NCBI RefSeq assembly: GCF_036365525.1
Contig: NC_090418.1
Coordinates: forward strand, 4,999,492 to 5,063,491
Origin: Heterodontus francisci
Lineage: Eukaryota
Length of the DNA: 64,000 nucleotides
Direction: 5' to 3'
In this document: piece after piece, positions 987-60,540 of the stretch
Numbering within the stretch: position 1 is the stretch's first letter
Layout of the letters: every line of letters begins with the position of its first letter
The notes under the pieces: model-generated
The model's database searches: none
Seen by the model: only the letters and a program-made list of their open reading frames with translations
What the model was told of the DNA's origin: nothing
Program-made: the position numbers and the translations under genes

Positions 987-1037
987 GGTGGTCAGTCACT
1001 GTCCTTTGTGAGTATGCTGCTCTGATTGCGAGGAGAG

Positions 1038-18419: not shown

Positions 18420-19150
18420 TGCCAACCTTGCCCTGCCCTCAACCAGTGCCCGTGACGTCATCGCCGCTGCGATTGTGCGTGTGTCAACGTGATGACGCAG
18501 TCGCCGCGCTGCCGGCCGCTTCAACCTGCGCGGAAGATGGCGGCGGGCGAGCGGCGCTGCGCATTCGGGCCTATGTTCCCAGAGCCTCCCACCGGCTTCG
18601 GGTCCCTCAGCTCGTCGCTGCTGTGCCGGAAACCGGTGTTCGTGTTGTCGGTGGAGAGATACCCGAGGGATCCGGAGAGCGGGAGAAGACTGTTGGAAGA
18701 TTCGGGCGGCGGTGGCGGCCCCGACCTGTACGACCTGAGCCTGACCGACGGCCACTGCCGCCTCCGGGCCACTCTGCGGCCCACGCTCAACCCCTTGGTC
18801 CGCCGCAACGAGTTGCACTGCGGCTGCGAGTTGAGGGAAATCCGCCTCGGGGTGGAGTACGACGAAAGGCGGCTTGGCGGTGGCGGCCGGCTCTTCGTCG
18901 TCCTGGAGGCCCAGGTGGTTAAGCGGGGCAGCGGTGCCCTGCCCCCAGCCATTAGGAGGCTGAAGGTGCAGAAGCTGCAGGTGTTCGGTAACGGGGCGGA
19001 GCAATGTCAGCGGCCAGAACTGCCACTCAAAGCCAAGAGGCGGTACTACCTGCCTCTGTGGGACAGTGCCAACTATTATGGGGAAGCTTGGCACCGACAG
19101 CCCCCTGGGCACCCTACCCATCGACTTGAAGGTGAAGTGGTACCGTCCTG
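18420..19150 (+). promoter_or_regulatory. CpG island promoter / exon 1 of the RADX-like gene
   Basis: CpG-dense island in a CpG-poor background; full CRE TGACGTCA at 18453-18460; ETS core CGGAAG at 18531-18536 overlapping the YY1 motif AAGATGGCGGC at the ATG. Confidence 0.75.
18537..19131 (+). CDS. RADX: RADX-like exon 1 (OB1)
   Basis: aagATGG Kozak (an in-frame upstream ATG at 18492 is possible); GAAG|gtgaag donor, phase 1. Confidence 0.85.
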
Positions 19151-22100
19151 AGCTTTTGTCCGGAACATTCCAAATTTCTAGCCCAGTTGCTAACATTTTT
19201 CCATCCCGGGCTCACCACAGAAGAAAATAAAGTTTGCATTTATACCACGCCGCAGCATGCCCAACAGACTGAACTGTGGTCATGCGGCCACCAATTTGCG
19301 CACAGCAAACTCCTGCAAACAGCAATGAGATATTGACCAAAATCGTCCTGTTTTCAGATGTGTGGGGTAAATGCTGGCCCGGACGTGCAAGAGAACACCC
19401 CTGCTTCTCTTTGAAATAGTGGCCTTAGCATCTTTTATGTCCATCTGAGAGGGCAGACGGGACCTTGGACTGACTTTTCATCCGAAAGATGGCATTTCCA
19501 ACAGTGCAGCAGTCCCTCAGTACTGCATTAAGAGTGTTGGTCTGGATTGTGCATGAACAATCCAAATTTAGAAGGACAGAGTCTGGACTATATTGCTTGG
19601 TTGAAGTGAACATAGTATGAAAATTTCTGCCACCTAACATTACACTGTTCCATTCTAGAGAGACTTAAGTCTGTAATGGTTACCACTAAATGCAGCCTGA
19701 CTGTAGCCCTTCACATCAACATAGAATGTTTAGGGAGATTAATGCTAAAGCTGATAATTGCAGACAATTATTAGTGAGTGGTCATTACTGTCAAATTGAA
19801 TTCTCATTTGACTGTATAAATTAAATCTCTCCCATCCTGTGCCTGCTGAGTTTCATTGTGCCATGCAATAGCTCATTTTCCTACTAGCCAGCTCCCAGGT
19901 CTCCATTGTTACTGCTTTGAAACTAGCAATTAGGAGTTGAGCACAAACCCTGGCTGGGCTAACTCCTGAAAGAAAGAATTTGTATTTACACAGCGTTACA
20001 TACAACCTCAGGACATATCAAAACACTATATAACCAGTGAAGTACTTTAGGTAGTGCTACACTGTTGGAGGTGCTGTCTTTCAGATGAGATGTTGAACCA
20101 AGGCCCTATCTGCCATCTCAGTCGGACATAAAAGATCCCATAGCACTATTCAAAGAAGAGCAGGGGTGTTACCAGTATCCTGGCCAATATTCTTCCAGCA
20201 ATCAACAACACAAATATAGATTATCTGATCTTTATCATATTGCTGTTTGTGGGAGCTTCCTGTGTGCAAATTGGCTGCTACATTACAACAGAGATTACAC
20301 CTCAAAAGTATTTAATTGATCGTAAAATGCTTTGTGATGCCCTGAGGTTGTGAAAGGTGCTAAAGGTGAAATGCAAGTCTGTCATTCTTTTAATTCTGCG
20401 CTGTGTGTCAGTCTGGATTTTGTGCTCATGCCTCTGGAGCAGGCTGTTAATTCACAACCTTCTGACTCTGAGGCAAGAAATCTGCCTGCTGAGCCATGGC
20501 TGATGGTGAAGGTCCATAGGCTGGATTCATAGCTTGACCAATCCTATTCTCACCCAGTAAGATCCATTTTATCTCACTCGTAAAGCTGCCATATTATGGA
20601 AACAGCGATTATTGACTCACTGTTTGAAAGCGGGCAGTGCAAACAAGTATGCAAAGCTCCACGGTTTAGCCAGGATTATCACTGTCCTGGCAGTGTCGGT
20701 ATTTACAGTAAGGCTATCAGATAAATATAACTGCCTATGTAAAGACAAAATCTTCCAGTGCTGTATTGACTCGTGGAAAGTGGAGGTTGGGGGAGACCAG
20801 GATTGGCCACAATGGTTGAGGAGCTCAGAAATTTAGGGATGGGAAGTGTCAAAAAGGAGGTTGCCTACCATCGCCAGTATTCACTGTCTAGACTTGCTTT
20901 GAGAAATAGTCATTTGATTGAGTTTTTTAACTCTATAAAGATTCAGCATCTTGAGTAATTAAGTGGAATCATGACTGAATAATGGGTTTGATTGCTCATG
21001 AGCAACTTGGGGATTGAGTTCAAATCCACTATAGGTCAATAATCCTGATAATTTGTGGATTGGCATCAGAAAATTGCTGGATTGTTGTAAAAACACAACC
21101 GGTTCATTAATGTCCTTCAAGAAAGGGAAGCTACCACCCTTGCCTCGTCTGGGCTTACATGTGACTGCAGTCCACACAATGTGGTTGACTCTTCATGCCC
21201 TCTGAAGTGGTTTAACAAGCCCTTCAGTAGTAAAAACAATCACTGGAATGTCCATCACCTGCTCAGACAAACTCGGGATGGACTATAAAAGTGTCTGGGT
21301 CACCCATGATGGACTTTTAAAAAATATACATTCTAATTATTCAAGAATGCCAGTGTATGTTGGTAGCTGGCCATGGAGATGTACAGGCTGAGGTATTGGT
21401 GTTCTTCCCAGTGGAGAGATCAGAGAAGGTTAAGGAAAGATTTAATAGAGCTGTTCAAAATCATGAGGGGATTTTTTCTTCGCAGTGAATACTTTTAAAG
21501 AAAAGATTTGCAGGCTATGGGGAACAAGCAGGGGTTAGTGGGACTAATTGGATAGCTTTTTCAAAGAGCCGGCACAGGCACGATGGACTGAATGTATGAT
21601 ACTATACTGTGCACAGGATGAGGGAGGGGAAACAGACTGGCATCTGATTTGTTTTTGCTGGATGTACGCAGGATCTCGTAGTATCGACCTGAGACAGCTG
21701 GAAGATTGCACCTTACAAAAGAAAAAGGACCATCTGCCAGTGATTGTCCGTATCCTCCGGAAGTGCAGACTTTATCATTTTGGACGGCCTGACAGATATT
21801 CAGAATGCCCATTCCAGGTAAATGCCATTATTTTTTGTTCCCCAGTTTACTCTTGCTGGGCTGCGGTTCCTTGGGCACTTGGAATCCTCCAATACCTCAA
21901 CCATGTGGCCATTCTCGTGCAAGACCCTAGATAGTGTGTCACGTAGACTGTTTGACAGTGAGGGACCTCAGGGCTGAGACCCAATCTGCTCTCAAAGGAT
22001 TGACCCAAGGAGTCACACTTTCTTGGTGAGTTTTTAACCATCTTACTTGCGCCAAGGTTGCACGTTCCCTCTGCACCATTCCTTATCGACCTTTCCCAGC

Positions 22101-25100
22101 TTCTCCTTGCTCTCTGGCAAATTGATTTGAATGCCCTTCACTTAATTTACAAGTTAGTCCATGGCTTCCCTATACCCTGCCTGAGCAAAGCACTCCAGTC
22201 ACCACCTCCAGTGTGCACCCATCTACTATTTGTGCTCCACTCTTTTCACTCCAGAACCTATCAACCTCTGGAACCTAGCTCAAATAACTTTAACTTGCCA
22301 CCTTCTTTCCTTTCTTCCACCAATCCTGTATTGGCCCTTTAAACGCCGCTCAGCGTCGGCTCTTTAACCGTCGCTCAGTGTAATTTTTCAGTCAGGCACA
22401 AGAAAGTTGTCTATTTTGCTCCTCCCTAGTCCAATAGCTCAGGAACTAATTCTGACCCCTATTGCTTCTCATGATCACTAGCCAGGGACTCCCGCTGAAA
22501 AATACATGCCTGCAAACCTCAGGACTGGGCTTTGCTATGATTGCCCCCAAGAATATTTGCTTCTTGAGATTCAGTCCAAGTTCACAATTGAAGTTCTCGA
22601 GAGGAGGGGAACAGATTGGAGAAATGAAACCTGCAGTCAAATGGTTACTGTGCACTCGCAAACTACTTTAAAATGGGAACATTTTTAGTTTGTGAACGTA
22701 TTCCTGATTTCTAACCCATAGGCCAAATTCCTAGTAGCAGATAAATCGGGGTCAGTGACAGTCGTGCTATGGAACTCCCTGTGTATGGACTGGTACAGAC
22801 ATCTGGAACCAGGGATGGTGATCCATCTGCACAACTACATTGTGAAGGAAAGTTATGCTTCACGATTGGGGCAAGATCCTGGAGTTACAAAGGAGCCTGT
22901 CCTAGGTACTGTAGCGTTGCAGCAAGTTATTAGAGTGAATGCGTGTGTCTTGTTTTACCTTTTCAAAATGTTGAAGTTGTCAGTTCTGCATTGGTACATT
23001 TAGATACAGAGTAAGGTTCCCTCTGATGAAAAGTCACAGACCTTAAACGTTAACTCTGCTTCTCTCTCCACAGATGCTGCCTGACCTGCTGAGTATTTCC
23101 AGCACTTTCTGTTTTTATTTCAGTTTTCCAGCATCTGCAGTATTTTGCTTTTAGTTTAAGGTTCCCTCTATACTGCCCCATCCAACTCTCCCAGGGCAGT
23201 TACAGCACAGTTTAGATACAGAGTAAAGTTCCTTCTGCTTTGCCCCAAAAATGTGTCTTGGGCAGTGGCACAGTGATTTACAAGGGAGTCAAGGGTTATG
23301 GGGGGGGCAGGCAGGACGGTGGAGTTAGGGCCACAATCAGATCAGCCATGACCTTATTAAATGGGGGAGCAGGCTCGAGGGGCCGAATGGCCTGCTTCTG
23401 TTACTCTTTCTTATATTCTAACCCTATTCTCAAAAAAGTGCCCCGTATTGTGTTAGTTCAGTGCTTTATTCCAGTCACCCTTGTGAGCTTTCAGAGTGAG
23501 AATGCTAGTTTTAGTTGAAGATTATGAGAGATTTGTGCTTTGGAGCTGCAGCTATTGGGGACTGCATTGAACTGACCCAGAGCTCATTTATCTAAAAACC
23601 CTTCATGGCTATCAGAGGAAGCCTTCATCCTGATTATTTGATTATGATCCATTGCCTGATCAGAATTGCTGCTCCTGACTGCTATCCAGTGACGCTTGTT
23701 GAACTGTACGTGTGTATGGTTATCGAGTGAAGAGAGGATTGGGCTTGGCTGTGATGCCTCTCATGGTTAAATAGCCGATGGATACTTGTCCCTTTGATTC
23801 ACACATGAATGCCCATTTGGGTGAGATACTAAAAGGCTGGCAGAACCATAACTGCAAATATCAGTGCTTTCAAAAGAGGAGAAACTGACAATACATACAT
23901 TAAAAATCGCACATCCGCATACTTCCCGGGTCACAATTTTGCCAGAATTTTGTGTTAACTATTTTCTTTATGAATCACTTTAAAGAAAGAAACAGTTTGC
24001 ATTTCTGTAGTGCCTTTTGACTCGGGTCACCCCAAAGCACATCACAGGCAATGAAGTACTTTTGAAGTGTAGCCACTGTTGTAATGTAGGAAACACTGCA
24101 GTGAATTTATGCATAGCAGGATCCCACAAATAACTATGTGATAGTGACCAGATAATTGATTTATGTGATGTTGATTGAGGGATAAATATTGATCAGGATA
24201 CCAGGGAGATCTCCACTGCTCTTCTTCGGGGTAGTAGTCATGGGATATTTTATGTCCACCTGAGAGGACAGACTGGGGTCTCGGTTTAAGATCCTATCTG
24301 AAAGACGGCACCGCCGACATTGCAGCAGTCCCTTAGTACTGCAGCGGAGTGCCAGCCTATATTGTGTCTCAAGTATCTGGAGAGGAGCCTGAACTCCTGT
24401 TAAAATGAGTTATTAAATGAATTACCCGGTTGGTTGGCATCCTTCCATCTACGAAAGATGATGGACAAGCAGCAAGCCATTCATTTAGGTGGGGTGTCTT
24501 CTCTTGATGCACCTTTGCTGATGGGTGTGAAGTTCAATCCTTGAGAGGCAGGTTCTGCCACAGGTGCTGCATGTGAAGCTGAGTTGGTGTTTTTGATGTT
24601 GGTGCCTGTTGCCAAGCTGCTGTAGCTACTGGTCGTCGTGGTAGTGCACACCAGTCCAGAGGATGTGTCGCCATTTCCCTCTTTTGCCAGCTAGTGACTC
24701 CCAGGTGCGATAGTCAATATTTAGGGCCTTCCTGTCACGCTTGCAAGCTTCCTTGAAGCGGAGCTTTGGCCGCCCCGCTGGTCGTCTGGCCCCGGCTACC
24801 TCACCATACAGAAGGTCCTTGGGTATGCGACTGTCTTCCATCGTGTGGACAGGTCCAATCCATCGAAGTTGCCTCTGTTTGATTAATGCCAACACGATTA
24901 GGAGCTCTGCCTTTGAGAGGACTGCTGCGTTTGTGATTTTTGTACTGCCATGATTTACCCATAATGCTGTAATTGCACCTTCCCGCCAGTGGTAGTACTG
25001 TAGCTCCTACGTTTTGCATCTCCAAGTTCCCCAGGCCTGCTTAGGAACATAGCACGAGAAGGCCATTCAGCCCATCGCCATTCAATATGATCATGGCTGA

Positions 25101-46100: not shown

Positions 46101-49100
46101 TTTTAAAAAAAAAGTTCAGCATCTCCTCAAATATTTCCACAGTCTTTAGAACACAAGTCCTCAAAAAATATTAAAAATGAAAACACCTTCATAACAAAAG
46201 GAAAAAATTAGCAAAAACAAATGTGGGTCCATTACAAGCGGAGTCAGGAGAATTTATAATGGGGAATAAGGAAATGGCAGAGAAACTAAATCAGTACTTT
46301 TGTGACTGCCTTTACAGAGGAAAATACTAAAAAACCTCCCAGAAATAATGGAGAATTAAGGGACTAATGTAAACAAGGAATTGCAAGATAATAGTTTTTA
46401 AAAAAAGTACTAGAGAAATTAAAGGGACTTAAAGTAGATCATCCCCAGAGTGTTGAAAGAGGTGGCTGTAGAGATAGTAGATGCATTGGTGGCCATCTTT
46501 CAAAATTCTATAGACCCTGGAACGGTTCCTGCAGATTGGAAGGTGGCAATTGTAACCCCACTATTTCAGAAAGGAGGGAGAGAGTAAATAGGGAACTATA
46601 GACCTGTTAGTCTAACATCAGTCGTAGGGAAGATGCTAGAATCTATAATAAAGGATGTGATAACAGGACACTTAGAAAATAATGATAGGATTGAACGGAG
46701 ACAAATTGGATTTATGAAAGGGAAATCATGTTTAACAAACCTGGTGGAGTTTTTTGAGGATGTAACTAGCAGAATGGATCAGGGGGAGCTGGTGGATATG
46801 GTATATTTACATTTTCAGAAAGCTTTTGATAAGATCCCACACAAGAGGTTAGTAAACAAAATTAGAGCACATGGGAATGGGGGGAATAAACTGGCATGGA
46901 TTGAGAACTGGTTAACGGACAGAAAACAGAGAGTAGGAATAAGTGGGTCATTTTCAGGTTGGCAGGCTGTGATGAGTGGGGTACAGCGAGGATCGGTACT
47001 TGGGCCCCAGCTGTTCACAATATATGTCAATGATTTGGATGTGGGGACCAAATGTACTATTTCCAAGTTTGCAGATGACACAAAACTCGGTGGGAATGTG
47101 AGGTGTGAGGAAGATGCAAAGACGCTTCAAGGGGATTTGGAGAAGCTAAGCGAGTGTGCAAAAATTTGACGGAGGGAAAACAATATGGAGAAATGTGATG
47201 TCACCCACTTTGGTAGGAAAAACAGAAATAGAGTATTCCTTAAATGGTGAGAGGCTGGGAAGTGTTGAACTTCATCGGGACTTGGGTGTCCTTGTTCATG
47301 AGTCACTGAAAGCGAACATGCAGGTGCAGCAAGCGGTTAAGAAGGCAAATGGCCTTTATTACAAGAAGATTTGACTAAAGATGTCTTACTGCAATTATAT
47401 AGAGCCTTGGTGAGACCGCACCTGGAGTATTGTGTGCAGTTTTGGTCTTCTTACCTAAGGAAAGATATACTTGCCATAGAGGGAGTGCAACGAAGGTTCA
47501 CCAAACTAATTCCTGGGATGGAGGGATTGTCCTATGAGAAAAGATTAAATAGACTGGGCCTTTATTCTCTAGTGTTCAGAAGAATGAGAGGTGATGTCAT
47601 TGAGGCATACAAAATTCTTACAGAGCTCGACAGGGTAGATGCAGGAAGGATGTTTCCCCTGGCTGGGTAGTCTAGAACCAGGGAACACAGCCTCAGAATA
47701 AGGGGTAGGCCATTTAGGACTGAGATGAGGAGGAATTTCTTCACTCGGGATGATGAATCTTTGGAATTCTCTACTGCAGAGGGCTGTGGAGGCTCAGTCG
47801 TCGAGTATGTTCAAGACTGAGATCAATAGATTTCTACATATTAAAAACATCAAGGGATACGGGTATAGTGCAGGAAAATGGTGTTGAAGTAGATCAGCCA
47901 TGATCTCATTGAATGGCGGAGTGGGCTCGAAGGGCTGAATGGCCTACTCCTGCTCCTATTTCTTATGTTCTTAGACCAATCCTGGGAACTTTCCAGTAAC
48001 TGTCCTGTTAATTTTAACTAGGTGTCTGAAAGTGTTTATGTAAACCACCATAATGCATCAAATTGAAAGTAATATACATGGATGGTCTTTGTCAATTCCG
48101 ATTGTCTCGTCACCGTACTTTGAAGTGTAATAACTGTTATTGTATAAGCTAATGCAGCAGTAACTGCTGTAAAATGAACAGCTGTGTGGCTCAAGGGAGG
48201 AATATTGGGAGAACCTGGTCTTTTTTTGTATATAACCATGGACTCCTTAACTTCCAGAAAGGCAGATGGGGCCTCGGTTTACCACGATGTGAAAGCGAGC
48301 CTTTGTAGCCTTCAAAGTACAAGCAAGTGTTAAATATGACTCCATCCTATCTACAGATTATTCTATTGTCCGCTACATGCTATGACATATATTAGCAAAC
48401 AGCACAGTATCTAACATGCTGTCAGCAGTGTCACAGGAGATTAGTTAGTATGGTATAAATGTCTTGGGCCTGGCACTTGTCTGTCACACTTCAGACGTCA
48501 CTGCCCACCACGTAACATTTTGTTACGGATGCAGAGCCATTTTAAAGAGAAGGAAAGCCGAGTGGAAGCCTGAAATTTTCAGTAGTTAGAAATGCCTTCT
48601 GATTGACTCCTGCAGATTACAGGTGGCTAAAGTGACTGGGATTTGCCTGTTTAAACCACTTCCCCACAAGGAATACTTGAACAGCATCTTTAAAGAGACA
48701 GGCCAGCTTGTCAGTTGCACATCGCCACCCTGCTCCAGACACAAACAATCCAGGAGCATCACCATGGGAGCTCCTCAACTTCATAGTAAATATGATACAA
48801 AGCTAAATAAAGCAATTCCGAAAAAATAAAAACACGTGCTCTAAAGTGTTTTCCTTTTTTTCATTTAAGTGACCTTTCTTGTGTGTACGAATGTCAGGGT
48901 GGAATGCAAAGTGATCGATCCCTGTGGACAGACAACATTCCCTTACCTGCTCACCACTGAGTACAGCCAGGTATATGTCAATGGTACGTACACAGGTGAG
49001 AGGACTGCTAGGTGGGCACTGTGATGTATATGGTGTTGAGAAACAACAAGGCACAAGTTGAGACTGCGCAAAGGAGAGGCCCTGCTCTCAAGTGATTCAT

Positions 49101-52100
49101 CATGGCTGGAGAGGTGGGGGTGGCATCGTGCCTGATTTGAATAGAGGATGCGAAACTGAATGTGAAGGAGGTGGAAGAAACTACAAAATGTCAACAATCA
49201 ATAGATTTTTGTTGGGTAAACGTATTAAGGGTTATGAACCAAAGTGTGTTGATGGAGTTAAGATACAGATCAGCCATGATGTAATTGAATGGCAGAACAG
49301 GCTGGAGGGGCTGAATGGACGACTCCTGTTCCTGTGTCACTCTCTTGATGTAGGTTTATTCAGTGAGTAGCTGTACCAGAGAAGGTGGTTGAATCTGGAT
49401 TAATTAACACCTTTAAAAGGAAGCCTGATCAGGATAGGTGAGAAGATGACACTTTTTTTCAGGGGAGGGGTTTGAGTTGTGGATTGACAGGTGGAGTGGG
49501 AAGGCCCCATAACAGAATTATTCACAAACTGCTAATGAAGGACGCCTGATACTCTGCAATATCTTTTTTCCTTTAAGATTCTTTCCCTCTTCCCCAGGAG
49601 TTGCAAACTTGTCTCAATGGTGGCATCGCCATGGCAGTCAGATCCCACGTATCAGCCCAGACAGTGAGTACAGCAGGCTGTTCGACTGTTAAAAGCATAC
49701 AAGTCAACCCCAAACCTGTCTTCAGAGGCCTAAATATATCCTGGGGGGCCATAGGACAGCTAGGGAGCTTGTCTCTGGTTTTAGACCAATTGAAATAACA
49801 AGTAGGCAACTGCTGCCTTGATTTGAGATCAGCAAAGAGCACAGAATGGCAAATGAACCTGCGACTTAGTGGGCTGACTACTGCACCAGGCATTACAATA
49901 ATCCACCTAGCAGCAAGGAAACTAAACATGAAGTGTGACCACAATGAGCAGTTCCCTTGGCCTCTGAGCATAGAAGTCATTCACTCCCTTAAAACCTGAC
50001 TTTTGGACTTAATACATTTTTATCTTCCCCTGCCCCCTTTAGGGTATCATCAAGGGAAGCTGTATGTGAAAAACCCAAAGGTGAAAGAGTTTATTCAGTG
50101 GATACAATCTGCCAAGGACCAGGAGAAGAACAGACTGAGCCACACTCAGATTGGTGGATGTTACAGCTTTCCTCCCCTCCCTTCCAGTGAGCGGGATTAT
50201 CAACATGAAATACTAGGTGAGGAATCCGGAACCGTTGACTTGCTTAACATCTGGTGTTTTATTTATTTTATCTTCTGCAGCTTGCCCTAGTCTGCTGCTG
50301 GCTGCCTTGCCTCTGAATCAGAAGGTTGTGGACTCGATCTCCACTGCAGAAACTTGAGCACATAATCCAGGCTACACTCCTACTGAAGGAGTGCTGCACT
50401 GTCGGAGATGCTGTCTTTCGAATGAGACATTAAACTGAGGCCCCCTCTCAGTAAAAGTTCCCACTATTCAGAGAAGAGCAGGGGAGTTCTCCCTGGCGTC
50501 CTAGCCAACATTTATCCCTCAACCAAAATGACTATAAAAACAGATTATCTTGTCAATTATTTTCTGGCTGTTTGAAAGCGCAATATAAATACAATTCCTT
50601 CTTTCCTCCCTCCTTGAGTAAAAAGGAATAATTCATTCCCAACTGACTCTTTTGTCTCTCTGTCAGCTCCTGTTCATGTACAATACAGTACAAAGTGGCA
50701 GGTTGCATCCAAAATTGCCTCAGAGGCAGGAACCAAAGGGTAATGGTCAGTGGATATTTTTGTGACTGGAAGGGTGCTTCCATGGGGGTTTCACAGGGCT
50801 CACTACTGGGTCCTTTGATGTCCATGGTATAGATCAATGGTTCATACTTAAATGGGCATGATTAAGTAGTTTGCAGATGATAAGAAAATTGGCTGTGAAT
50901 TTGATCGTGAGGAAGAAAGCTGTCGACTGCAGGAAGAGATCAGTGGACTGGTCAGGTGGGCAGAAAAGTAGCAAATGATGTTCTGTTGGAGAATTGTGAG
51001 GTAATGCATTTGGGAGGATAAATAAGGCATGTGAATATACAGTTAATGGTAGGATACTGAGAAGTGTACAAAAATAGAGGGACCTTGAAGTACATGCTTT
51101 CAGATCCCTGAAGGTAGCAGGACAGGTAGATAATGTGGTTAAAAAGGATACAGGATACTTAACTTTATTGGCCGAGGCATGGGGTATAAGAGCAGAGAAG
51201 TTATGCTAGAACTGTATGAAACACTACTTAGACTGCAGCTAGAGTACTATGTACAGTTCTGGTCACTGCATTACAGGAAGGATATGATTGTATTAGAGAG
51301 GGTACAGAGGAGATTTACAAGAATGCTGGGAATGGAGAATTTTAGCCAAGAGGAAATATTGGATAGGCTGGCATTGTTTTCTTTGGAACAGAGGAGACTG
51401 TGTTGGAGATTTAATTGAGGTGTATAATATTAGGAGAGGCCTAGATACAGTGGGTAGGAAGGACTTGTTTTCATTAGCAGTGAGGTCAATAACCAGGGGG
51501 CATAGATTGAAAGTAATTGGTAGAAGGAATTAGAGGGGAGTTGAGGAGAAATCTTTTTTCATTCAGAGAGTGGTGGGAGTCTGGAACTCATTGCCTGAAA
51601 GAGTGGTAGAGACATAGCATTTAAAAATTACTTGAATATACACTTGAAGTGCCGTATCCTACAGGACTACAGCTGGAATTACATCTGGGCTAGCTATTTT
51701 TCGGCTTGTACAGACGATGGGCCAAATATCCTGCACCGTAAATGTTTTATGTTTTTACACTGTGTAAAAGGGTTACAATTCACTCTAGTCTGGTGATGTT
51801 TGCTGATATGTGTACTGGCAGTGCCTTCAGGAAAGGAGCAGGGAAATTTGGGAGAGAAGTTTTTTTTAAAAAGCAAAAACATGTTTGTTTCTCAGGTGGA
51901 TCTCCCTTGACCAGCATGTCTGAACTGAAGCAGATTCTGAATCAGCTGGAGTACCGAGAGTATAGGCAGGTCACTGTGCAGGGACGGATCACATCTGTGA
52001 AATACAGGTCACTGGGTGAAGTGGATGAGGTAATGGAGCTGTCTAAATAGTTGTTTGGCAATGGGGTTAGTGGTTACGGGAATGGACTGAGAATGGAAAA

Positions 52101-55100
52101 TTGTACAAAGCCCATAGACTCAAGTGGTGTGGGTGAGGAGAGAAATTGTGTGTGTGTGTGCGCTTTATGTAAAGCGGAAACATTAAGGCAGGAATACCCA
52201 ACGCAAAGACATCTGGTGGTTAACACACTCTCGTCTTTGATTCATAAGGTCTGTGGGTTCCAGTCCCACTGCAGAAACTTGAGCACAAAATCCAGTCTGA
52301 CACTCAGTGCAAGACTGAGGGAGTGCTGCACTGTTGGAAATTAAACCCCGTCTGCCATCTCAGATGGACATAGAAGATCCACAGTACTATTTCGAAGAAG
52401 AGCAGGGGAGTTCTGCCTCATGTCCTGGCCAATATTTATTCCTCAACCAATATCGCTGGAAAACAGTTGTTCTGGTCATTATCACATTGCTGTTTTTGGG
52501 AGCTTGCTGTGCTCAAGTTGGCTGCCGTGCTTCCTACATCATAATAGTGACTTAATTTCAAATGTGCTTAATTGGCTGTAAAGCATTTTGGGACATCCCA
52601 AAGTTATTAAAGGTGCTATATAAATATGATCTATTTTTCTGTTTTATATGAGTACACCAGAACCATAAGATACCCTATTTTACAAGGCGACGAGACTGGC
52701 AATGCCAACTTTGACCAGATCAGAGTCTTGTGCTGGGTAAAGGATGCGCTGACGTAGGCTTTTATGGAGTTGCTTCCTGACGATAGAAAGGAAGTTGCTG
52801 ACACAGATCAGGTTTCTAGCCTATCAGGTAGCCAATTGCTTTTTTTTCCAGGAAGTTCCTGTCTTACAGTCCGCTGATGCCTGTTGCACAGGCGAGCCAG
52901 CGGTTGAAGGAATCATGGAGTTTGAAGAATTGTTTGATGCTGACCTTCCATTCCTGGGCATGAGAGGAAACAAAAGTCCTGTGATCCCTGTCCTGAGGTG
53001 AGATTTATTTGCCTTGTGTGGAGAAGGTAGAATTTTTTTGTTGGATATTTGTATTTGTGAAAGCGAGGTATATTTGTTGACAGGAATAGAAAATTCCTCC
53101 ACTCGGGATCCTCATTGAGCGCTCCTAAGTCAGGTATATCGCTGGTTAAAGAAGTCAGTCACTGAATTACTTTGTGCTAGAGATCTCCTGATTTCCAGTG
53201 AAGGTAATGACCAGCTTTTGGGGTCCAGATTCAATGCTGCATGTTGACACTAAGCTTGGCTTTTAAGCCACTGGGTTGTAGGAGGAAGGGACGTAGCTGA
53301 GGGTGGTCTTGGGGAAGGAATGAGTCAGAGTAGGAGACAGTACAGTGAGTCTTGACCTCAGCAGAAGACCTAGCTTTGGGACAAGGGGTGGAAGGACATG
53401 AATCAAAGCTAGAAGCTTATCTGTGTTGGAGATCTGATTGAATTAATAAACTGGAACTTGTGTTTCACCAGTAGAACTCCTCTGGGAACAGAAGCAGGCT
53501 TGTCGTCACAGAAAAGAAAACGAAAATGCGTAACCCACGGTAAAAAACAGGCTGCATCAAGGTAACAGGAGCTTTCTCTCACCCTGTCTGTTCTACCAAT
53601 CAGCACTGTGCTTCTAACAAATAAATTCCAATTCCTGAGCAAGCTGTCTACTTAATGAGGTGCAGGTGACTCTGGTCCATTCACCCACGGATCCATTCTT
53701 CAGGAATGAGCCAGTTGGGCGTTGGTTGGCTACTTTTGACCACGTTGGTTGGTGGGGGGGAGGGGGGGGGGTCAGTGGGTTTTGGGCATCCAGAATTGTA
53801 CCCGATACTGTCTTTCTCTGCCTCCAAGTGTGAGTACTTTCCATCAGTATTATACTCCAGAAAGCCAGTTGGTGAAGGATAGAACTGGAGCCAATCTTTA
53901 GTTATAGAAGCATTTATTTACAGAGTTACACATTATAAGCATACACCTCCGAACTCAAAACACCACAGTTTCAGTCTCAGTCTATTTATAGGGGCACAAG
54001 TGAATGCCTGCAACAGATCTTAGCACTGGCAGTGGTAAAACAAGGCGCCCTCCCTGCGGGCTTGGGGGGAGGGGTCTTTCCATCCTGGGTAATGTGTGGC
54101 CCACGGAGGACAACTGTACCCCCAGGGTCCCTCTTCTCCTGGACTGAACGCCCAACCCCCTCGACAGGGCTCTCTGGACTGGCCCTGGCGACCCCTCCTC
54201 ACCTACCTCTTTTCCAGGGTTCTATTGCTGGGCCTGGGTCCGAGGCCTCTGCAGTACTGGCAGTGGCTACCGCTCCCAGGATCCCACCTCCTTAAACTTT
54301 GACCTCAAAAGACCAGAATATGGCTCCAGGAGGCTGAAAAAAATGCAGAGCTCTGCCTCCTGCACAAAATCCAACCATGGTGACAGTGCCTTTCGATATT
54401 ATGTCCCTGCACTTTGAAATTGTAGTAAACATTTTTTCTTAATGATATCTCTGTCCTCAAAAACACATTGACAAAGCTGTTTCAAAAAGCATACAGGATC
54501 CTGGGCTGTATAAACAGAGGCACAGAGTACAAAACCAAGGAAGCTGTGCTAACTCTTCATAAATCACTGGCTGGGTTCCAGCTGGAGCATAGTCTCCAAA
54601 TCTGGGCATCACACTTCGTCAAGGCCTTGGAGAGGAGATTTACTAGAATGGTACCAGGGTTGTGGGACTTCAGTTATGTGGAGAGACTGGAGAAGCTGGA
54701 TTGTTCTCCTCAGAGCAGAAAAGGTTGAGGGGAAATTTAATAAAGTTCTTTTTAAAAATGAGGAATTTTGATAGAGTAAGAAAGGAGAAACAGTTTTCAG
54801 TGGCAGGAGGGTCAGTAACCAGAGGGGGGACACAGATTTAAAATAATTTGCAAAAGAGTTGGAGGAGGAGATGACAAATGTTTTTACACAGCGAGTTGTG
54901 ATTTGGAGCACGCTGCCTGAAAGGGCGGTGGAAGCAGATTCAATAATAACTTTCAAAAGGGAATTGGAGAAATACTTAAAATGAAAATATTTGCAGGGCT
55001 ATGGGGAAAGGGCAGGAGGAGTGGGACTAATTGGATAGCTCTTTCAAAGAGCCGGCACAGGCACAATGGGCTGAATGGCCTCTTTCTGTGCTTTATCATT

Positions 55101-58100
55101 CTGCAACTCTGACTGTGACTTCTGGCACCTCACCTAACCTCTCCCCTTTGAAGCATTTAGCATGTGAAAAGCACAATTTCTTTTTTGATCTAGACTCAGT
55201 AAAGGTACAGAATCAAGTGGCGAAGAAGAGACTACGGCACACCATCCGCGAACGCATACAAAGGATATTAACAGTGGTGGAAGTCCTGGACAAGGTTTGA
55301 ATACACAACTGCCTCCTCACAACACTCAGTTGTTATCCTACAACCGTGACTTTGTGGGTAGCACTCTCGCCTCTGAGTCAGAAGGTCTGGGGTTTGAGAC
55401 CTACTCCGGAGACTTGAGCAAAAATCTAGGTTAATACTTTCAGTGTCAGTACTGAGGGAATGCTGTCAGTCAGTCTGTTGTGATGGCAGTAATGGCACAG
55501 TAAATGACCTCAACAATCCCCAGGCTAAGGAGAGTGGAAGATCACTATGCCCTCCGCTCCTGATCTCTATGCAGTGACTCATGCTGGAAAGAACCTCAAA
55601 AGTGATAACTGCGGAGGTCCGAATCGGATTGGGCTGTCACCCCTTCCCCCTATTGTCCTCAACGGCTAAAGACCTGGCTGTGCTCCCCGTCTAGGTTCAC
55701 ACATGTCGCATGGCAACTTGGGTGAGATGCCAGAGGCCAGCCAGTACCTGCCAAACCCCAAGCCAGTGCTTTTATTGTGGCTGGTTAGATTGCTTAACTG
55801 GAACCATCTCAGCTCTGCTATGATCATCTGTGCTGAGTTTGGGCAGGAATTAACCCACCCCTCCGCTATCCCAAAAAGGGATTTGGCAGGTTATTGTTAT
55901 TACTCTTAGTGATATCATCCATTGGCACAAATGCCCCTCCCTCAGGAGCCTGGGTTCTGTATTATTTCCAACCAGATAGTTTGTGAATGACCCAGCAGTC
56001 TGAAACAGTAATCATGGGAAACAAGTAGAGAAACTGGGATTAGTTTGGGATTGATACAGGACTATGGGGAGAAAATGGAACAGTGGGATTAGTTTTGGAT
56101 TGATCTTGCGAAGAGGTGGCAGATACAATGAGCAGAATAACCACATCCTGAGCTCTAAATTTCAATGGTTCTAGTCTTGTGGGTTCAAACTGTATTCAAA
56201 GATTAAGCTAGGCTCAAATACCAATGCAGTACTGAGCAGTGAGATGTTAAATATTGGTGCTGTCCACCTGTTCAAATCGAAAAATTCTATGTAGTAGTTG
56301 AGGAAGAACAGGGACTTTTCCTGGTCCCCTGCTCAGCATTCCTTCCTCAACCAATACTGTTGCTGCATGTTGGATTGTACTGTGCACAAAATGGCTGCTG
56401 CATTCACTTGTACAACAGTGACTGCACTGCTAAAATAAATTTTAAGAACTTGTACATGAAACACTCTGAGATGTGAAATGTGAAGTGGTCTTAATGGAGT
56501 ACAGTCTTTCTTCCTTCTTTAAAGACCTCAGCTTCATCAAGGCTTGCCAAGAGTTCGACACAGACTCAGACGATGTGGAGGCGACAGCTAGTGCAGTGAA
56601 CCCCTGCTCAGCCCAGCCCATCTTCTCCTGGACCGACTGCCCTTCGCAGCTGGAGCACCTCCCTCACCACGGCAACGTCTCGCAGATGGTGGCTCGCAGC
56701 TTCCGCTTCAGAGACAAGGCCTTGCTCCTCCAAACCTTTAGTCTCCAGCCCTCGAGCTTTGCTGGAATCCCGGCTGATCAGAAGAAGGATCTAGAACACT
56801 GCAAACCAGCATGTTGTGCTGGATACTACATCGTGACCATTTTAGGTAAAGCGAGCTTGGGTAACAAGTTCTGGAAAGCTGTTGGGATTTTGCTGCTGTT
56901 ATCAGCACATGTTAGCAGGTTTTGTGGGAGTTCCTGAATCCTAATCAGACTAGTCTGCACAAACAAATTTTTGGATTGATACAGGGCTATGGGGAGAGAG
57001 TGGAGCAGGGGGATTAGTTTGTGATTGATAGAGGCTGTGGGAAGAGAGCAGGGCAGTAGGATTAGTTTGGGACTGATCCTTCAACAGCACCTTCCAAACC
57101 TGTGACCTGTACCACCTAGAAGGACAAGGGCAGCAAATACATGGGGACACCACCACCTGCAAGTTCCCCTCTAAGTCACACACCATCCTGACTTGGAAAT
57201 ATATCGCCGTTCTTTCATCGTCCTTGGTTCAAAATCCTGGAGCTCCCTCCCTAACCGTACTGCGGGGGTACCTACACCACAGGAACTGCAGCAGTTCAAG
57301 GCAGCTCACCACCACCTTCACAAGGGCGGTTGGGCGTAGATGTTAAATTCTGGCCTTGCCAGCGATGCTCACATCTCAAGAATGAATTGAAAAAGCAGGG
57401 TAATAGGGTGAGAGCAGAGCAGTGGAATTAGTATTGGATTGCTCTTGCAAAGAGTTGGCGGATACGATGGACCAAGACCAGAGCCTTGAGCTCTGACCTT
57501 CTATGGTTCTAGTGTTGTGGATTCCAACTTTGGTTCCTCTCATCTCCTGAAGATGCTGCGTATTGCCGGGGTACAATTCCACAGATAGTATGACACAAAA
57601 CTGGGTGGGAGGGTGAGTTATGAGGATGCAGAGAGGCTTCAGGGTGATTTGGACAAGTTGAGTGAGTGGGCTAATGCATGGCAGATGCAGTATAATGTGG
57701 ATAAATGTGAGGGCCTTGGTGAGGCCACACCTGGAATATTGTGTGCAGTTTTGGTCTCCTTATCTGAGGATGTTCTTGCTATAGAGGGAGTGCAGCGAAG
57801 GTTTACCAGACTGATTCCTGGGATAGCAGGACGGACGTATGAGGAGAGATTGAGTTGGTTAGGATTATATTCGCTGGAGTTCAGAAGAGTGAGTGGGGAT
57901 TTCATAGAAACATATAAAATTCTAATAGGACTTGACAGGGTAGATGCAGGAAGGATGTTCCCGATGATGGGTGAGTCCAGAACCAGGGGTCATAGTCTAA
58001 GCATACGGGGTAAACCTTTCAGGACTGAGATGAGGAGAAATTTCTTCACCCAGAGAGTGGTGAGCCTGTGGAATTCGCGACTACAGAAGGCAGTTGAGGC

Positions 58101-60540
58101 CAAAACATTGTATGTTTTCAAGGAGTTAGATATAGCTCTTGGATCTAAAGGGATCAAAGGGTATGGGGCGAAAGTGGGAACAGGCTACTGAGTTGGATGA
58201 TCAGCCATGATCATAATGAATGGCGGAGCAGGGCCGAATGGCCTACTCCTGCTCCTATTTTCTATGTTTCTAGTAGCAGCCCTCCTGCAGGCTCCAATAA
58301 GAGCTGTTCATTGTGACCTATGTGTCAGCTCCTTGAGTGTTACTGGAACATTGAATTCTCCCAGAGATCATCTGCACAGCAATCAAGTAAAAGTTTTCTG
58401 TTCAAATCATTCTCAGGATGTGGGTGCTGCTGGCAAAACTGGCATTTATTGTCCATCCCAGTTGCCCTGAGGTGGTTGTGGGCCTTCTGTTTGAACTGAG
58501 CTTATCTCTGTCCTATCCAACACTCGCTGTCATGGTTTGAGGGGAGGGATTTGGTCAGTGATCAGGAGCAGGACCCCTGGTCGATCTGTCTTCCCCAATC
58601 CAAGGGTGCTAATATCCAACCTCCAGTTGGAGCCCACCTTAAACAGCTGTATCTTGAGATGCGGGAAAAGGGGACAGTTGAATCGGAATCTTACTTGTTT
58701 TTTCCTCTTTCACCTTCCAGGACTAAATGAAGAGCTGTCTTTAGACACGATCTTTCTGCCCATCGTTTCTAGGTTGGATCACCGAGCTATGTACCCTGCC
58801 AAGCACAACAACACACTGGTCTCCATTTTGGCTCATGGAGGACTATCATCCAGACAGCTCTCCCAAGTTAACACGGACAGTGCAGATAGCTCCTCGCCTT
58901 CTCCTGGTAAATGTTCCTTCCAGCTCTCTTCCCTCCTCCTTCTCCTCTCCTGAAGGCGCCAACTCTCACTTGGTACCTCATTTCAGTCTCCAATCTTCAT
59001 TTGTTAGCCTAGAACTCCAAAGAATGTACAGCACAGAAAAAGGCTATTTGGCCCAACTGGTCTATGCCATTGTTTATGCCATGAGCCTCCTCCCACTCGA
59101 CTTCATCTCGCCCTATCAGCATATCCTCTATTCCTTTCTCCCTCATGTGTTTTTCCAGCTTCCCCTTCAATGCATCTATGCTATTCAGCTCAGCCATTCC
59201 TTGTGGTAGTGAGTTCCACATTCTTCCTACTTTCTGGGTAAAGAAGTTTCTCCTGAATTTCCTATTGGATTTATTAGTGACTGTCTTATATTGATGGCCC
59301 CTAGTTCTGGTTTCCCCCAGAAGTGGAAACATCTGTCTTCCCCATTGAACTCCTTCATAATTTTAAAGACCTCTATCAGGGCACCACTCATCCTTCTCTT
59401 ATCCAGAATAAAGAGCCCCAGTCTGTTTAGTTGAGAGATTAAGTGAGGTAGAAAGGGACTGAATTGGATCAGTCATACTTCCAGCCAGGGGAGTTAAATA
59501 GAGACTGCAATTCATTGCTGGCCAAGCTTTTCCACAATGCCTTAGTGAGTTTAACTTGTAAATTGCTGAGGCCGGGAAAGTTGCAAGTCTGATTCCTGGT
59601 CGGTGCAGAGTCAACTGAGGCAGTGGCAGGAGCATGGAATTGGTCTCAGTAAACTTGAGCTCATCCAAAACTCTGCAGCCCGTATACTAACTCATTATCA
59701 AGTCCTTTTCACCCATCAGCCCTGTGCTTGCTGATCTACGTTGGCTCCCCGTCCAGCAATGCCTAATAATTTAAAACTGTCATCATTGTGTTCAAATTCC
59801 TCCATGGCCTCGCCCTTCCCGATCTCTCTCCAGTCTTGCAACTCCTGAGATCTCTGCACTCGTCCAATTTTGGCCTTTTCATTGGTGGTCATGAGCTCTG
59901 CAATTCCCTCCCTAAACCTCTGCCTCTTAGTCCTCCTTAAAAACCTAGCTGTTCAATCAAGCTTTTGATCACCTGTCCTAATACTTTCCTATGCGGCTCG
60001 TTGTCCAATTTTGTCCGATAACCCCTCTGAAGTGCCTTGGGATGTTTTGGTATGTTAAAGGCGCTAAATAAATGTAAGCTGGTGTTGCTAAGAGCATGCA
60101 ATTGTCCTTAGCAGATCTGGGCTAGAGCAGAAAATCACTGCCACCTTTTTATTTATTCATGGGTTTGAACATTGCTGGCAAGGCCAGCATTTATCGCACA
60201 TTCCTAATTGTCCTTGAAAAGGTGGTGGTGAGCCGCCTTCTTGAACCATTGAAGTTCGTGTGGTGTGGGTACACCCACAGTGCTGTTAGGGTGGGAGGTC
60301 TGGGATTTTGACGCAGCGACAGTGAAAACTAAACCAACAATACAAAGAAAGGAAAATAGATTCAACAGTTTTTATTTAAAGTACAAATTATTGATTTGCT
60401 TATTGGTAGATGACATTCTCAGATCTGCGGCAGGCCTGGAGGAAATGCTGTTCATCTTTGTCCTTGACATCTGCAACCAAGGAGGTACCAGTGTTGAAGT
60501 TGCTCTCAATCGTGCCTACGTCCAGCACACAACTCTCTGA
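18537..60540 (+). CDS. RADX: RADX-like (RPA-related OB-fold ssDNA-binding protein, CXorf57 family), 15 coding exons, about 888 aa: join(18537..19131,21672..21817,22722..22905,33175..33283,38343..38434,44406..44549,48870..48983,50043..50216,51896..52029,52852..52997,53472..53561,55194..55294,56525..56845,58721..58906,60410..60540)
   Basis: GT-AG introns with consistent phases giving a 2667-nt open frame. Blocks match recalled human RADX: PVFVLSVERY, YDLSLTDG, YYLPLW..YGEAW, VRILRK..FGRPD, VADKSGSVTVVLWNSLC.DWY, CDIIGLVTFVGR, YRWVHLIDGT..PFVLKLFSTSQPEI, KVKEFIQWI, IGGCYSFPPLP, LEYRE...VQGRIT, VTILGLN, LDICNQG...VEVALNRAY. Confidence 0.88.
21672..21817 (+). CDS. RADX: RADX-like exon 2
   Basis: tacgcag| GSRSIDLRQLE...VIVRILRKCRLYHFGRPDRYSECPFQ |gtaaat. 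Confidence 0.88.
22722..22905 (+). CDS. RADX: RADX-like exon 3
   Basis: cccatag| AKFLVADKSGSVTVVLWNSLCMDWY...KEPVL |gtactg. Confidence 0.88.
23025..23156 (+). mobile_element. Penelope-derived short element with 13-bp TSD
   Basis: TSD taaggttccctct at 23012-23024 and 23157-23169; begins at a degenerate hammerhead core CTGATGA..(T)AAACGTT. Confidence 0.7.
23985..24400 (-). mobile_element. Deu-domain SINE (SacSINE1-like)
   Basis: Same family as 4805-5270. Confidence 0.72.
24425..24970 (-). mobile_element. RTE-clade LINE 3' fragment
   Basis: Translation QRQLRWIGPVHTMEDSRIPKDLLYGEV.GARRPAGRPKLRFKE, the RTE/BovB ORF C-terminus. Confidence 0.8.
27189..27572 (+). mobile_element. Young full-length HE1-type SINE inserted in CR1 ORF2
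   Basis: Intact A box and B box (ggttcgattcc), duplicated 21-nt 5' end, (ctaat)n tail. Confidence 0.9.
29636..29878. mobile_element. Palindromic Penelope-derived insertion with 15-bp TSD, inside CR1 ORF1
   Basis: 87-bp inverted arms 29680-29766 and 29793-29879 with 2 mismatches; TSD acttcctacacacat at 29621-29635 and 29879-29893. Confidence 0.85.
29778..29820 (+). ncRNA. Minimal type I hammerhead ribozyme-like motif (U4C variant)
   Basis: cagtgtt-CCGAAGA-agggtc.act.gacct-GAAA-CGTT-aactctg: stem I 6/7 paired, stem II hairpin, palindromic ACGT stem III as in Penelope-type minimal hammerheads. Confidence 0.45.
33175..33283 (+). CDS. RADX: RADX-like exon 4
   Basis: gtttccag| ELNLNPRNPAAELTVINARNIREEWQLPALQYCFATR |gtagca; recalled human [37 protein letters not shown]. 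Absent from the ORF track. Confidence 0.88.
33345..34870 (+). mobile_element. Degenerate CR1 LINE (RT to 3' end)
   Basis: Decayed RT motifs; C-terminal LIEVFK..RG.DRVD..KL.PL.GESRTRG. Confidence 0.8.
34975..37010 (+). mobile_element. Internally deleted CR1 LINE interrupted by the 35184-36025 insertion
   Basis: VTSGVLQGSVLGPQLFTIYINDL; same subfamily as the minus-strand CR1 at 30235-32905. Confidence 0.8.
35184..36025. mobile_element. Unclassified GC/CpG-rich non-coding insertion, 842 bp, 10-bp TSD
   Basis: TSD aaggcagaag at 35174-35183 and 36026-36035; subterminal 17-bp inverted repeats 35191-35207 and 36001-36017 with 2 mismatches. Confidence 0.7.
38343..38434 (+). CDS. RADX: RADX-like exon 5
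   Basis: ggtgcag| KELSELRSGDLCDIIGLVTFVGRQERIRNK |gtatgt. Confidence 0.9.
38452..43795. repeat. About 31-bp C-rich minisatellite, about 5.3 kb (RADX-like intron 5)
   Basis: Unit ccaggcacctgtcaccccctgctcctccctc with recurring variants; source of the 1160-aa spurious ORF. Confidence 0.95.
43972..44324 (-). mobile_element. Young full-length HE1-type SINE
   Basis: Near-identical reverse complement of 27210-27566. Confidence 0.9.
44406..44549 (+). CDS. RADX: RADX-like exon 6
   Basis: ttttgcag| ERSEEFLVYRWVHLIDGTASEPFVLKLFSTSQPEIQAQLSPCSMADNT |gtaaga; the 3' boundary may be 21 nt earlier. Confidence 0.85.
45040..47975 (+). mobile_element. CR1 LINE (5'-truncated ORF2) split by a solo LTR
   Basis: GFMKGKSCLTNL, KFADDTKLGG and LVRPHLEYCVQFWS motifs; CR1 3' tail. 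Confidence 0.85.
45285..46196. mobile_element. Solo LTR, same family as 10753-11751
   Basis: (C)GTTACGA...TCATAACA termini; 4-bp TSD AAAG at 45281-45284 and 46197-46200; shared blocks ggagtgcactgtcttt and atactttggccaa. Confidence 0.8.
48870..48983 (+). CDS. RADX: RADX-like exon 7
   Basis: catttaag| VTFLVCTNVRVECKVIDPCGQTTFPYLLTTEYSQVYVN |gtacgt; an alternative in-frame donor lies at 48995. Confidence 0.82.
50043..50216 (+). CDS. RADX: RADX-like exon 8
   Basis: cctttag| GYHQGKLYVKNPKVKEFIQWI...IGGCYSFPPLP...HEIL |gtgagg. Confidence 0.88.
50680..51730 (+). mobile_element. Degenerate CR1 LINE fragment
   Basis: YKSREVMLELYETLLRLQLEYYVQFWS motif. Confidence 0.75.
51896..52029 (+). CDS. RADX: RADX-like exon 9
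   Basis: tttctcag| GGSPLTSMSELKQILNQLEYREYRQVTVQGRITSVKYRSLGEVDE |gtaatg. Confidence 0.88.
52225..52630 (+). mobile_element. Deu-domain SINE (SacSINE1-like)
   Basis: Same family; further copies near 395-590, 19230-19560, 20055-20390, 44645-44810, 50300-50560 and 62060-62445. Confidence 0.7.
52852..52997 (+). CDS. RADX: RADX-like exon 10 (poorly conserved linker)
   Basis: tttttccag| EVPVLQSADACC...PVIPVL |gtgaga; supported by splice sites and phase only. Confidence 0.7.
53472..53561 (+). CDS. RADX: RADX-like exon 11 (basic NLS-like QKRKRK)
   Basis: tttcaccag| SRTPLGTEAGLSSQKRKRKCVTHGKKQAAS |gtaaca; phase 2-2; NAGNAG acceptor. Confidence 0.6.
54465..55100 (+). mobile_element. CR1 LINE 3' fragment
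   Basis: KAYRILGCINRGTEYK...RRFTRMVPGL motif and CR1 3' end. Confidence 0.7.
55194..55294 (+). CDS. RADX: RADX-like exon 12 (linker)
   Basis: tttgatctag| RLSKGTESSGEEETTAHHPRTHTKDINSGGSPGQ |gtttga; needed to convert phase 2 to phase 1. Confidence 0.6.
56525..56845 (+). CDS. RADX: RADX-like exon 13
   Basis: ttctttaaag| DLSFIKAC...VARSFRF...LQPSSF...GYYIVTIL |gtaaag. Confidence 0.85.
57590..58270 (+). mobile_element. CR1 LINE 3' fragment (same subfamily as 25346-30234)
   Basis: EGVQRRFTRLIPG...ESRTRGHSL; near-identical 3' UTR. Confidence 0.8.
58721..58906 (+). CDS. RADX: RADX-like exon 14
   Basis: ccttccag| GLNEELSLDTIFLP...SSSPSP |gtaaat; recalled human GLNHEIAIDVAFLP. Confidence 0.85.
59010..59430 (-). 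mobile_element. CR1 LINE 3' fragment
   Basis: FPLLGETRTRGH...RRNFFTQKV.RMWNSLP. Confidence 0.75.
59670..60085 (+). mobile_element. L2-clade LINE 3' fragment
   Basis: cccatcagccctgtgcttgctgatctacgttggctccccgtc... and tail aaaggcgctaaataaatg. Confidence 0.65.
60410..60540 (+). CDS. RADX: RADX-like exon 15 (stop)
   Basis: ttggtag| DDILRSAAGLEEMLFIFVLDICNQGGTSVEVALNRAYVQHTTL*; recalled human [37 protein letters not shown]. Confidence 0.88.

Follow-up and report, generated by a model that had tools for sequence, protein, structure and literature searches.

The locus analysed here, a stretch of 64,000 nucleotides of the horn shark (Heterodontus francisci) genome referred to as the window, contains a gene resembling RADX, whose human product restrains the DNA-repair enzyme RAD51. 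It raises the question of whether this is the RADX of the shark in unfamiliar surroundings or a separate and older gene and, if the latter, whether its product would still act on RAD51. Splice-aware reconstruction reproduced the frame given in a preliminary description of the sequence: 888 amino acids in 15 exons from an ATG at 18537 to a stop at 60540 on the plus strand (Table 1), with GT..AG borders at all 14 introns. The product is identical to P0233, the NCBI 'RADX-like isoform X1 [Heterodontus francisci]', and exon 1, used as a query, retrieved an identical 887-residue horn shark protein, 'RADX-like isoform X2' (P0001), which places onto the window as 15 segments from 18537 to 60537 and uses a tandem acceptor of exon 11 lying 3 nt downstream of the X1 acceptor. 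The gene has therefore already been annotated by NCBI, automatically, as 'RADX-like'. The protein scores 425 bits on the Pfam RADX profile PF17659 (cut-off 33.4; E 5e-127) and matches human RADX in the structure 8u5y far beyond chance (E 3.7e-110), and the gene is an intact, spliced member of the RADX family.

Table 1. Features located in the window (positions counted from its first letter).
Feature	Position	Strand	Basis
Acetylcholine receptor gamma/epsilon-type gene, probable signal-peptide first exon; rest upstream of the window	~944..987	-	
TMEM95-like gene, three exons near 16900-17112, 15900-15970 and 12163-12249	12163..17112	-	Pfam PF15203, each exon below cut-off
Exon 1 (ATG; OB1; inside CpG-rich stretch)	18537..19131	+	Reconstruction; spliced to exon 2 in run X3
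Exon 2 (OB2 start; Y233, F235 = human R248, Y250; Q247 = Q262)	21672..21817	+	Reconstruction, contigs
Exon 3 (OB2; K249 replaces human F264; W264, Y286, K289, Y292 conserved)	22722..22905	+	Reconstruction, contigs
Exon 4 (OB2 end; N313, R315 = human N331, R333)	33175..33283	+	Reconstruction
Exon 5 (OB3 start)	38343..38434	+	Reconstruction
Exon 6 (OB3; L382 replaces conserved W400; 7-residue insertion in elasmobranch members)	44406..44549	+	
Exon 7 (OB3; loop aligned to human QVPK 451-454)	48870..48983	+	Reconstruction, alignment
Exon 8	50043..50216	+	Reconstruction, contigs
Exon 9 (OB4, first half)	51896..52029	+	Reconstruction
Exon 10 (OB4 insertion, predicted disordered)	52852..52997	+	Reconstruction, contigs, structure model
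Exon 11 (disordered insertion; tandem acceptors 53472/53475 giving 888/887 aa)	53472..53561	+	
Exon 12 (disordered insertion)	55194..55294	+	Reconstruction
Exon 13 (insertion end, OB3-4 interdomain region, OB4)	56525..56845	+	Reconstruction, contigs
Exon 14 (OB4; N786, E788 = human N759, E761)	58721..58906	+	Reconstruction, alignment, contigs
Exon 15, coding part and stop; contigs continue to at least 60700	60410..60540	+	Reconstruction, contigs

Spliced contigs of the window gene were found in all six distinct runs examined, from three samples of three studies. Exons 13, 14 and 15 are joined by contigs in four of four runs (one sample), exons 1, 2 and 3 in run X3, and exons 2 and 3 in X5 and X8, which represent a related organism and two further studies; the direct contig evidence covers junctions outside exons 3-8. 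Tissue origin is absent from the run records, and the runs were read as RNA from the behaviour of the contigs, because exact skipping of introns is hard to explain as DNA. The gene is real and expressed, and the offsets within two contigs fit an 87-nt exon 11, i.e. the 887-residue form. The 14 introns, the open frame and the spliced contigs speak against a processed copy or pseudogene. In X1 and X3 a deep exon-1 contig begins only at 18593, which is codon 19, and the letters upstream of this point, 311 of them in X3, are unexplained. No splice acceptor (AG) was found ahead of 18593, nor a second genomic copy or local repeat that accounts for the break, while contigs of X5 and X8 read through the position and the N-terminus of the window gene is conserved in other sharks; an allele, a library chimera and an alternative 5' end are the candidates.

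That the window gene is a decaying copy, or else the sole RADX orthologue of the shark displaced by translocation, is extremely improbable. Decay would fit the 19 coding differences from the related organism in exons 1-3, for which pN/pS is 0.56 and not significantly below 1 (p 0.17). Nevertheless, the frame is intact and spliced, and full-length relatives occur across sharks, rays and bony fish; between horn shark and skate the folded domains are 66% identical for the window gene and 70% for the orthologue. Translocation is addressed by the remainder of the genome. A Pfam profile search of the whole assembly gave 19 matches at three places: the window itself on chromosome C48, 69.10-69.14 Mb on C6 and, with the best scores, 15.64-15.71 Mb on C15. 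Two single-exon searches returned the same three loci and nothing else. The horn shark genome carries three RADX genes. The C15 gene, modelled from nine N-terminal and three C-terminal exons with the disordered middle left out, has bird, gar and lizard RADX as its best matches, and the C6 gene (C6:69095646-69146841), which is intact with 14 exons and 795 residues, has a separate set of shark 'RADX-like' proteins; its product has a shortened OB1 without the YNEKR-type interface motif. Intron positions and phases of the window gene match those of the C15 gene at all ten positions compared and those of the C6 gene at ten of ten folded-domain positions, one of them a column off, and the three are therefore duplicates at the DNA level. 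The window protein is 36% identical to the C15 protein and 32% to the C6 protein, which are 44% identical to each other; to a mammalian RADX the window protein is about 29% identical and the C15 protein 44%.

The gene order on C15, a CNH kinase (15.52-15.56 Mb), RADX, PA-domain genes and a double-GRAM gene (15.95-15.97 Mb), fits the order NRK-RADX-RNF128-TBC1D8B, which is taken to be that of human. Two tandem PA-domain (RNF128-type) genes follow the canonical RADX there, at 15.73 and 15.80 Mb. On C6 a CNH kinase (68.53-68.58 Mb), the RADX-like gene (69.10-69.15 Mb), a PA-domain gene (69.36 Mb) and a GRAM gene (69.65 Mb) form a block that fits MAP4K4-RNF149-TBC1D8, presumably the arrangement at human 2q11. 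The C15 gene, lying between an NRK-type kinase and RNF128-/TBC1D8B-type genes, is the true RADX orthologue; the closer copy beside RNF128 and TBC1D8B, for which the preliminary description had proposed a search, is thus present with the expected neighbours. The window gene as a translocated sole RADX is ruled out by this syntenic orthologue, together with the rejection of nesting described below.

In a FastTree phylogeny of 161 sequences, chosen from 225 by a minimum coverage of 400 profile positions in the N-terminal part, the C15 and C6 clades are sisters, the window clade branches outside them, cyclostomes come next and invertebrates lie outside. Supports were taken from an IQ-TREE analysis of a subset of 28 chosen taxa over 672 columns, with the disordered loop removed, and are 99.9/100 for the window clade, 99.2/98 for the C15 clade, 99.3/100 for the C6 clade and 98.4/98 for C15 with C6. 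Given that the vertebrate sequences group together to the exclusion of amphioxus, acorn worm, annelid and brachiopod (100/100) and that each of the three clades includes cartilaginous and bony fish, the duplication falls after the invertebrate-chordate split and before the split of sharks and bony fish. AU tests of eight fixed, hand-written topologies kept three, which differ only in the position of the cyclostomes, and rejected a pairing of the window gene with C15 (p 0.0014) or with C6 (p 0.018). A shark-specific origin of the window gene was also rejected (p 8.6e-6 and 7e-64), as was its nesting within the orthologous RADX clade (p 3.7e-12); the topology at p 8.6e-6 is likewise a nested one. 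The gene is neither the only RADX of the genome nor, in trees with invertebrate outgroups, nested among the orthologues. The term 'second RADX paralog', used beforehand, stands in so far as the gene is a separate old paralogue, but the copies number three, and of these the one in the window is the remoter, 1R-type sister.

Around the window gene the block of kinase, RADX, PA ring finger and GRAM/TBC genes shared by C15 and C6 was not found. Among the candidates scored, PA and GRAM matches are absent from C48, their partners lying on C1 and C12 and not on C48 or C11, and the CNH kinase of C48 (13.8 Mb) is 8.8 Mb from the window gene, so that the local order of C15 is not kept at C48. At the level of the chromosome, C48 carries, beside this kinase, an FMR1/FXR gene (3.68 Mb) and a DLG gene (2.4 Mb), and C11 also has one member of each of these families. 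CNH kinases occur on C15, C6, C48 and C11, FMR1/FXR genes on C15, C48 and C11, and the DLG family on C15, C6, C48 and C11 and also on C39, where a fifth DLG-type N-terminal domain match lies at C39:21179585-21179761. By their exon signatures the kinases would be MINK1 on C48, MAP4K4 on C6 and TNIK on C11. Because these three families recur on them, C15, C6, C48 and C11 are read as a quartet. The earlier proposal that the gene sits on a 17p13-like chromosome as a separate old paralogue is supported. A search for Ripply genes gave C31, C10 and C15 (63.9 Mb), none of them adjacent to a RADX locus, and is uninformative.

Given its separate clade, its place on a quartet chromosome and the rejection of nesting, the window gene is very probably a whole-genome-duplication ohnologue, as had been suspected, and its origin at 1R is, to a slightly lesser degree, also likely. 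Alpha-beta chromosome pairs are reported to share fusions (PMC7269912), and C15 and C6 are read as a 2R pair because their shared gene order resembles such shared fusions. By this analogy the younger, 2R pair would be C15 with C6, leaving C48 and C11 as partners. A single ancestral RADX would then have doubled at 1R; one copy would have doubled again at 2R to give the canonical RADX on C15 and the C6 gene, and the other would have given the window gene and a 2R sister on C11, since lost. The C6 gene, kept by cartilaginous fish and sturgeon, would be the 2R sister of canonical RADX. Neither the profile search, with its stricter first look, nor the two single-exon searches found a fourth copy on C11. 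A duplicate of small scale or of 2R age might instead have moved to the 17p13-like chromosome, in line with a local gene order that, chromosome-level paralogy aside, has nothing in common with C15, and with the cyclostomes, whose placement is weak in the tree (33.2/56) and is left among three positions by the AU tests; the tree alone therefore gives no 1R date. However, this is improbable for three reasons: the window gene branches outside the C15 and C6 pair, which share gene order; its pairing with either is rejected; and C48 belongs to the same chromosome quartet.

The distribution of the three clades extends well beyond the horn shark. The window clade comprises sharks, rays, coelacanth, sturgeons, paddlefish, gar, bowfin and many teleosts, and the C6 clade sharks, rays, elephant shark and sturgeon. 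An orthologue and a window-clade protein are both present in Latimeria, Amia, Lepisosteus, Megalops and Rhinoraja, and Acipenser has proteins in all three clades. The bowfin, sturgeon and coelacanth members of the window clade are 40-47% identical to the window protein over the folded domains. Teleost proteins labelled si:ch73-71d17.2 and the coelacanth, bowfin and gar proteins named 'RADX' (P0024, P0033, P0019, P0018 and P0253) fall in the window clade and are orthologues of the window gene, often plain 'RADX' in databases; the name si:ch73-71d17.2 was not found in the literature searched. None of the 36 named tetrapod proteins among the matches listed in the protein searches (24 mammals, six amphibians, four lizards and two birds) belongs to the window clade, and all 36, among them those retrieved with the coelacanth paralogue as query, have their best scores with C15-clade members from outside the tetrapods; no lungfish protein appears among the matches listed. 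The supposed loss in mammals is accordingly correct as to mammals but too narrow, as the absence spans all tetrapods sampled, and the window clade was likely lost in tetrapods generally, a step that would follow the duplications.

Whether the product could act as human RADX does was considered from its predicted fold. An AlphaFold2 model built with 87 sequences has a pLDDT of 79.2 and a pTM of 0.82, with a low-confidence loop at 572-716, and human RADX has its disordered OB4 insertion at this position (PMC10962997). The model is consistent with four OB folds and a disordered insertion in OB4, the layout of human RADX (CXorf57; PF17659; PDB 8U5Y, 8U61). In a Foldseek search three human RADX chains rank first (E 1.4e-56, TM 0.85 by target), with RPA far below them. 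RPA70 (RPA1) shares tandem OB folds with the window protein, but its matches are weak in sequence (OB1, E 0.06 or worse) and in fold (TM at most 0.24 by query), and the RADX-specific architecture differs. Human positions were mapped through the 8u5y alignment and a tarsier protein, whose numbering is the same up to residue 553. Of the 13 residues of human RADX that contact single-stranded DNA (ssDNA), as given in Table 1 of PMC10962997, seven are identical in the window protein (Q262, W279, Y301, K304, Y307, N331 and R333), two are conservatively replaced (R232K and Y250F) and four are changed (R248, F264, F309 and R396); for the C15 protein the figures are nine, one and three. F309 and R396 vary among RADX orthologues too. 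According to the same source, joint mutation of five residues abolishes ssDNA binding by human RADX (PMC10962997); two of these five differ in the window protein, R248 to Y and R396 to S, although most non-mammalian orthologues lack R396 too. At the OB1-OB4 interface, compared residue by residue, seven of ten residues are identical, one is conservative and two are changed, and in ray-finned members of the window clade the OB1 interface motif is largely gone. AlphaFold is reported to fail on RADX oligomers (PMC10962997).

The window protein is predicted still to bind ssDNA. Nine of the 13 contacts are identical or conservative, and the clade-specific change lies in the ssDNA-binding face, at F264. 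An aromatic residue stands at position 264 in each of the 34 sequences not belonging to the window clade and in none of the 21 inside, W400 (L in the window protein) is retained in 32 of 34 outside and two of 21 inside, and R248 in two of 21 inside. Without the aromatic F264 and without R248, the affinity for ssDNA is probably lower or retuned, although in horn shark R248 and F264 have become Y and K, a swap of basic and aromatic residues in which compensation is possible.

The loop implicated in RAD51 binding was considered separately. According to PMC10962997, Q451-K454 of human RADX is a surface loop, the alanine mutant of which fails to bind RAD51. The peptide quoted in the preliminary description, at 48902 on the plus strand in exon 7, indeed aligns with this loop, but the argument built on it for an altered RAD51 interaction fails, as the motif is absent from non-mammalian orthologues too. 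Exact QVPK occurs in 16 of 24 mammalian proteins and in none of the 16 non-mammalian orthologues with sequence at this position, the shark C15 gene included, and it is also absent from the C6 clade, the cyclostomes and the invertebrates; the loop varies in length and sequence across the family. Its absence is therefore not specific to the window paralogue, and QVPK, a mammalian feature, is ruled out as a sign of altered RAD51 binding; from the sequences compared it appears to be no marker of RAD51 binding outside mammals. Four human residues of the OB3-4 interdomain region, S705, E713, D741 and K743, given in a preprint (bioRxiv 10.1101/2023.06.19.545603), correspond to M, R, H and K in the window protein and S, K, S and A in the C15 orthologue, and only S705 separates the two.

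The alternatives to the account favoured here bear on function (a new partner, or a germline role) or on history (an origin other than 1R, or translocation and decay), and the likelihoods attached to them do not sum to one. Taken as a whole, it is reasonably likely that the window gene is a 1R copy whose product is predicted to form an ssDNA-bound oligomer tempering RAD51 filaments, in partial overlap with canonical RADX. The mechanism by itself is leant towards only on balance and by analogy: OB2 domains of neighbouring subunits would bind ssDNA, OB1-OB4 contacts would link the subunits, and the oligomer would cap RAD51 filaments in the manner of human RADX, so that the protein may temper RAD51 at replication forks in partial overlap with canonical RADX. 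A more tentative possibility, and a rather doubtful one, is that the gene took on a distinct job through its remodelled ssDNA face, by acting on another substrate or as a weakly binding subunit which would join canonical RADX oligomers via the kept OB1-OB4 surface and tune RAD51 capping. Jawed vertebrates would then have started with three RADX genes, the 1R copy would have been kept for more than 400 million years, and the QVPK loop of mammals would have come late, refining the one gene that survived. It is unlikely, by a shade more, that a gene of the same origin abandoned RAD51 control for another nucleic-acid substrate or a partner at forks, telomeres or R-loops. The clade-wide changes at the otherwise fixed positions 264, 400 and 248 speak for such a departure, as does the longer branch from mammalian RADX implied by 29% identity against 44% for C15. 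Against it, most DNA contacts and the fold are retained, and the C6 clade has lost a similar number of otherwise conserved sites (seven, against eight in the window clade and two in the C15 clade), so that such losses are not special to the window clade.

The immediate surroundings of the gene raise one further possibility. The neighbours had been described as TMEM95 and an acetylcholine receptor gene; three TMEM95-like exons were seen, each below the Pfam cut-off, and the receptor gene, of the muscle gamma/epsilon type, is real, but only its probable first exon lies inside the window. The receptor exons upstream match gamma chains best and then epsilon, with 97 bits for a structure-database gamma chain, 86.5 for mammalian epsilon and 81 for mammalian gamma. 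The structure-database gamma entries are presumably from the well-studied electric ray, whose 'gamma' may be the epsilon orthologue by position. The TMEM95-like gene stands head to head with the window gene, the start codons being 1.4 kb apart, and between them, upstream of the ATG, lie a palindromic octamer at 18453-18460, taken to be a CRE-like motif, and a similar half-match at 18493-18499. This arrangement, octamer included, would suit a germline-restricted RADX of meiosis or sperm development that shares a promoter region with the TMEM95-like gene, as would the description of TMEM95 as a mammalian sperm fusion factor in a recent preprint (PMC13192892), where its distribution is given as limited and scattered; TMEM95 is also treated in PMC13192804. 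However, restriction to the germline is improbable, given that exon 1 lies within a CpG-rich stretch, like broadly expressed genes, and that every run examined contained spliced contigs of the window gene, a point of little weight as the tissues are not given. A spliced contig of the TMEM95-like gene was not found among the matches listed.

Several other features of the locus were recorded. At 11155-11396, between the TMEM95-like and receptor genes, exact-match contigs occur in X1 and X3; the frame tested there had no Pfam match, and the segment is possibly a repeat or a last exon. A search for a downstream gene on C48 covered 140 kb with 924 candidate frames, of which the 150 longest gave no Pfam match. 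Intron 5 holds a minisatellite with a 31-nt unit in a 5.3-kb array (38506-43794), further minisatellites lie upstream of the gene at 8179-10138, 2172-2574 and 5688-6359 (units of 29, 33 and about 69 nt), and LINE-like reverse-transcriptase fragments were seen by eye in several introns.

In summary, the window gene is an ancient RADX paralogue, one of three in the horn shark, of a family that was already known. It differs from human RADX in clade and chromosome and lacks QVPK, as do the non-mammalian orthologues, whereas eight of the ten OB1-OB4 interface residues are identical or conservative; with the C15 and C6 genes it shares family and introns. RADX is said in PMC10962997 to have no significant sequence relatives beyond its orthologues; none of six taxon terms occurs in the text of its supplement, where the orthologue table or alignment may be pictures. 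No description of RADX paralogues was found in the literature searched, which lay mostly outside subscription journals. Ohnologues kept by cartilaginous fish form a class already known, and the surprise is moderate. With three RADX clades in sharks and sturgeon and at least two in coelacanth, gar, bowfin and teleosts, fish radx knockouts may be masked by a second gene, and the many database 'RADX' entries that are this paralogue can blur conservation analyses. As the RAD51-contact loop that has been mapped, QVPK, is mammalian in sequence, antagonism of RAD51 either works with other loops too or arose later than the RADX protein, and the three shark RADX proteins provide natural variants with which this question may be tested.
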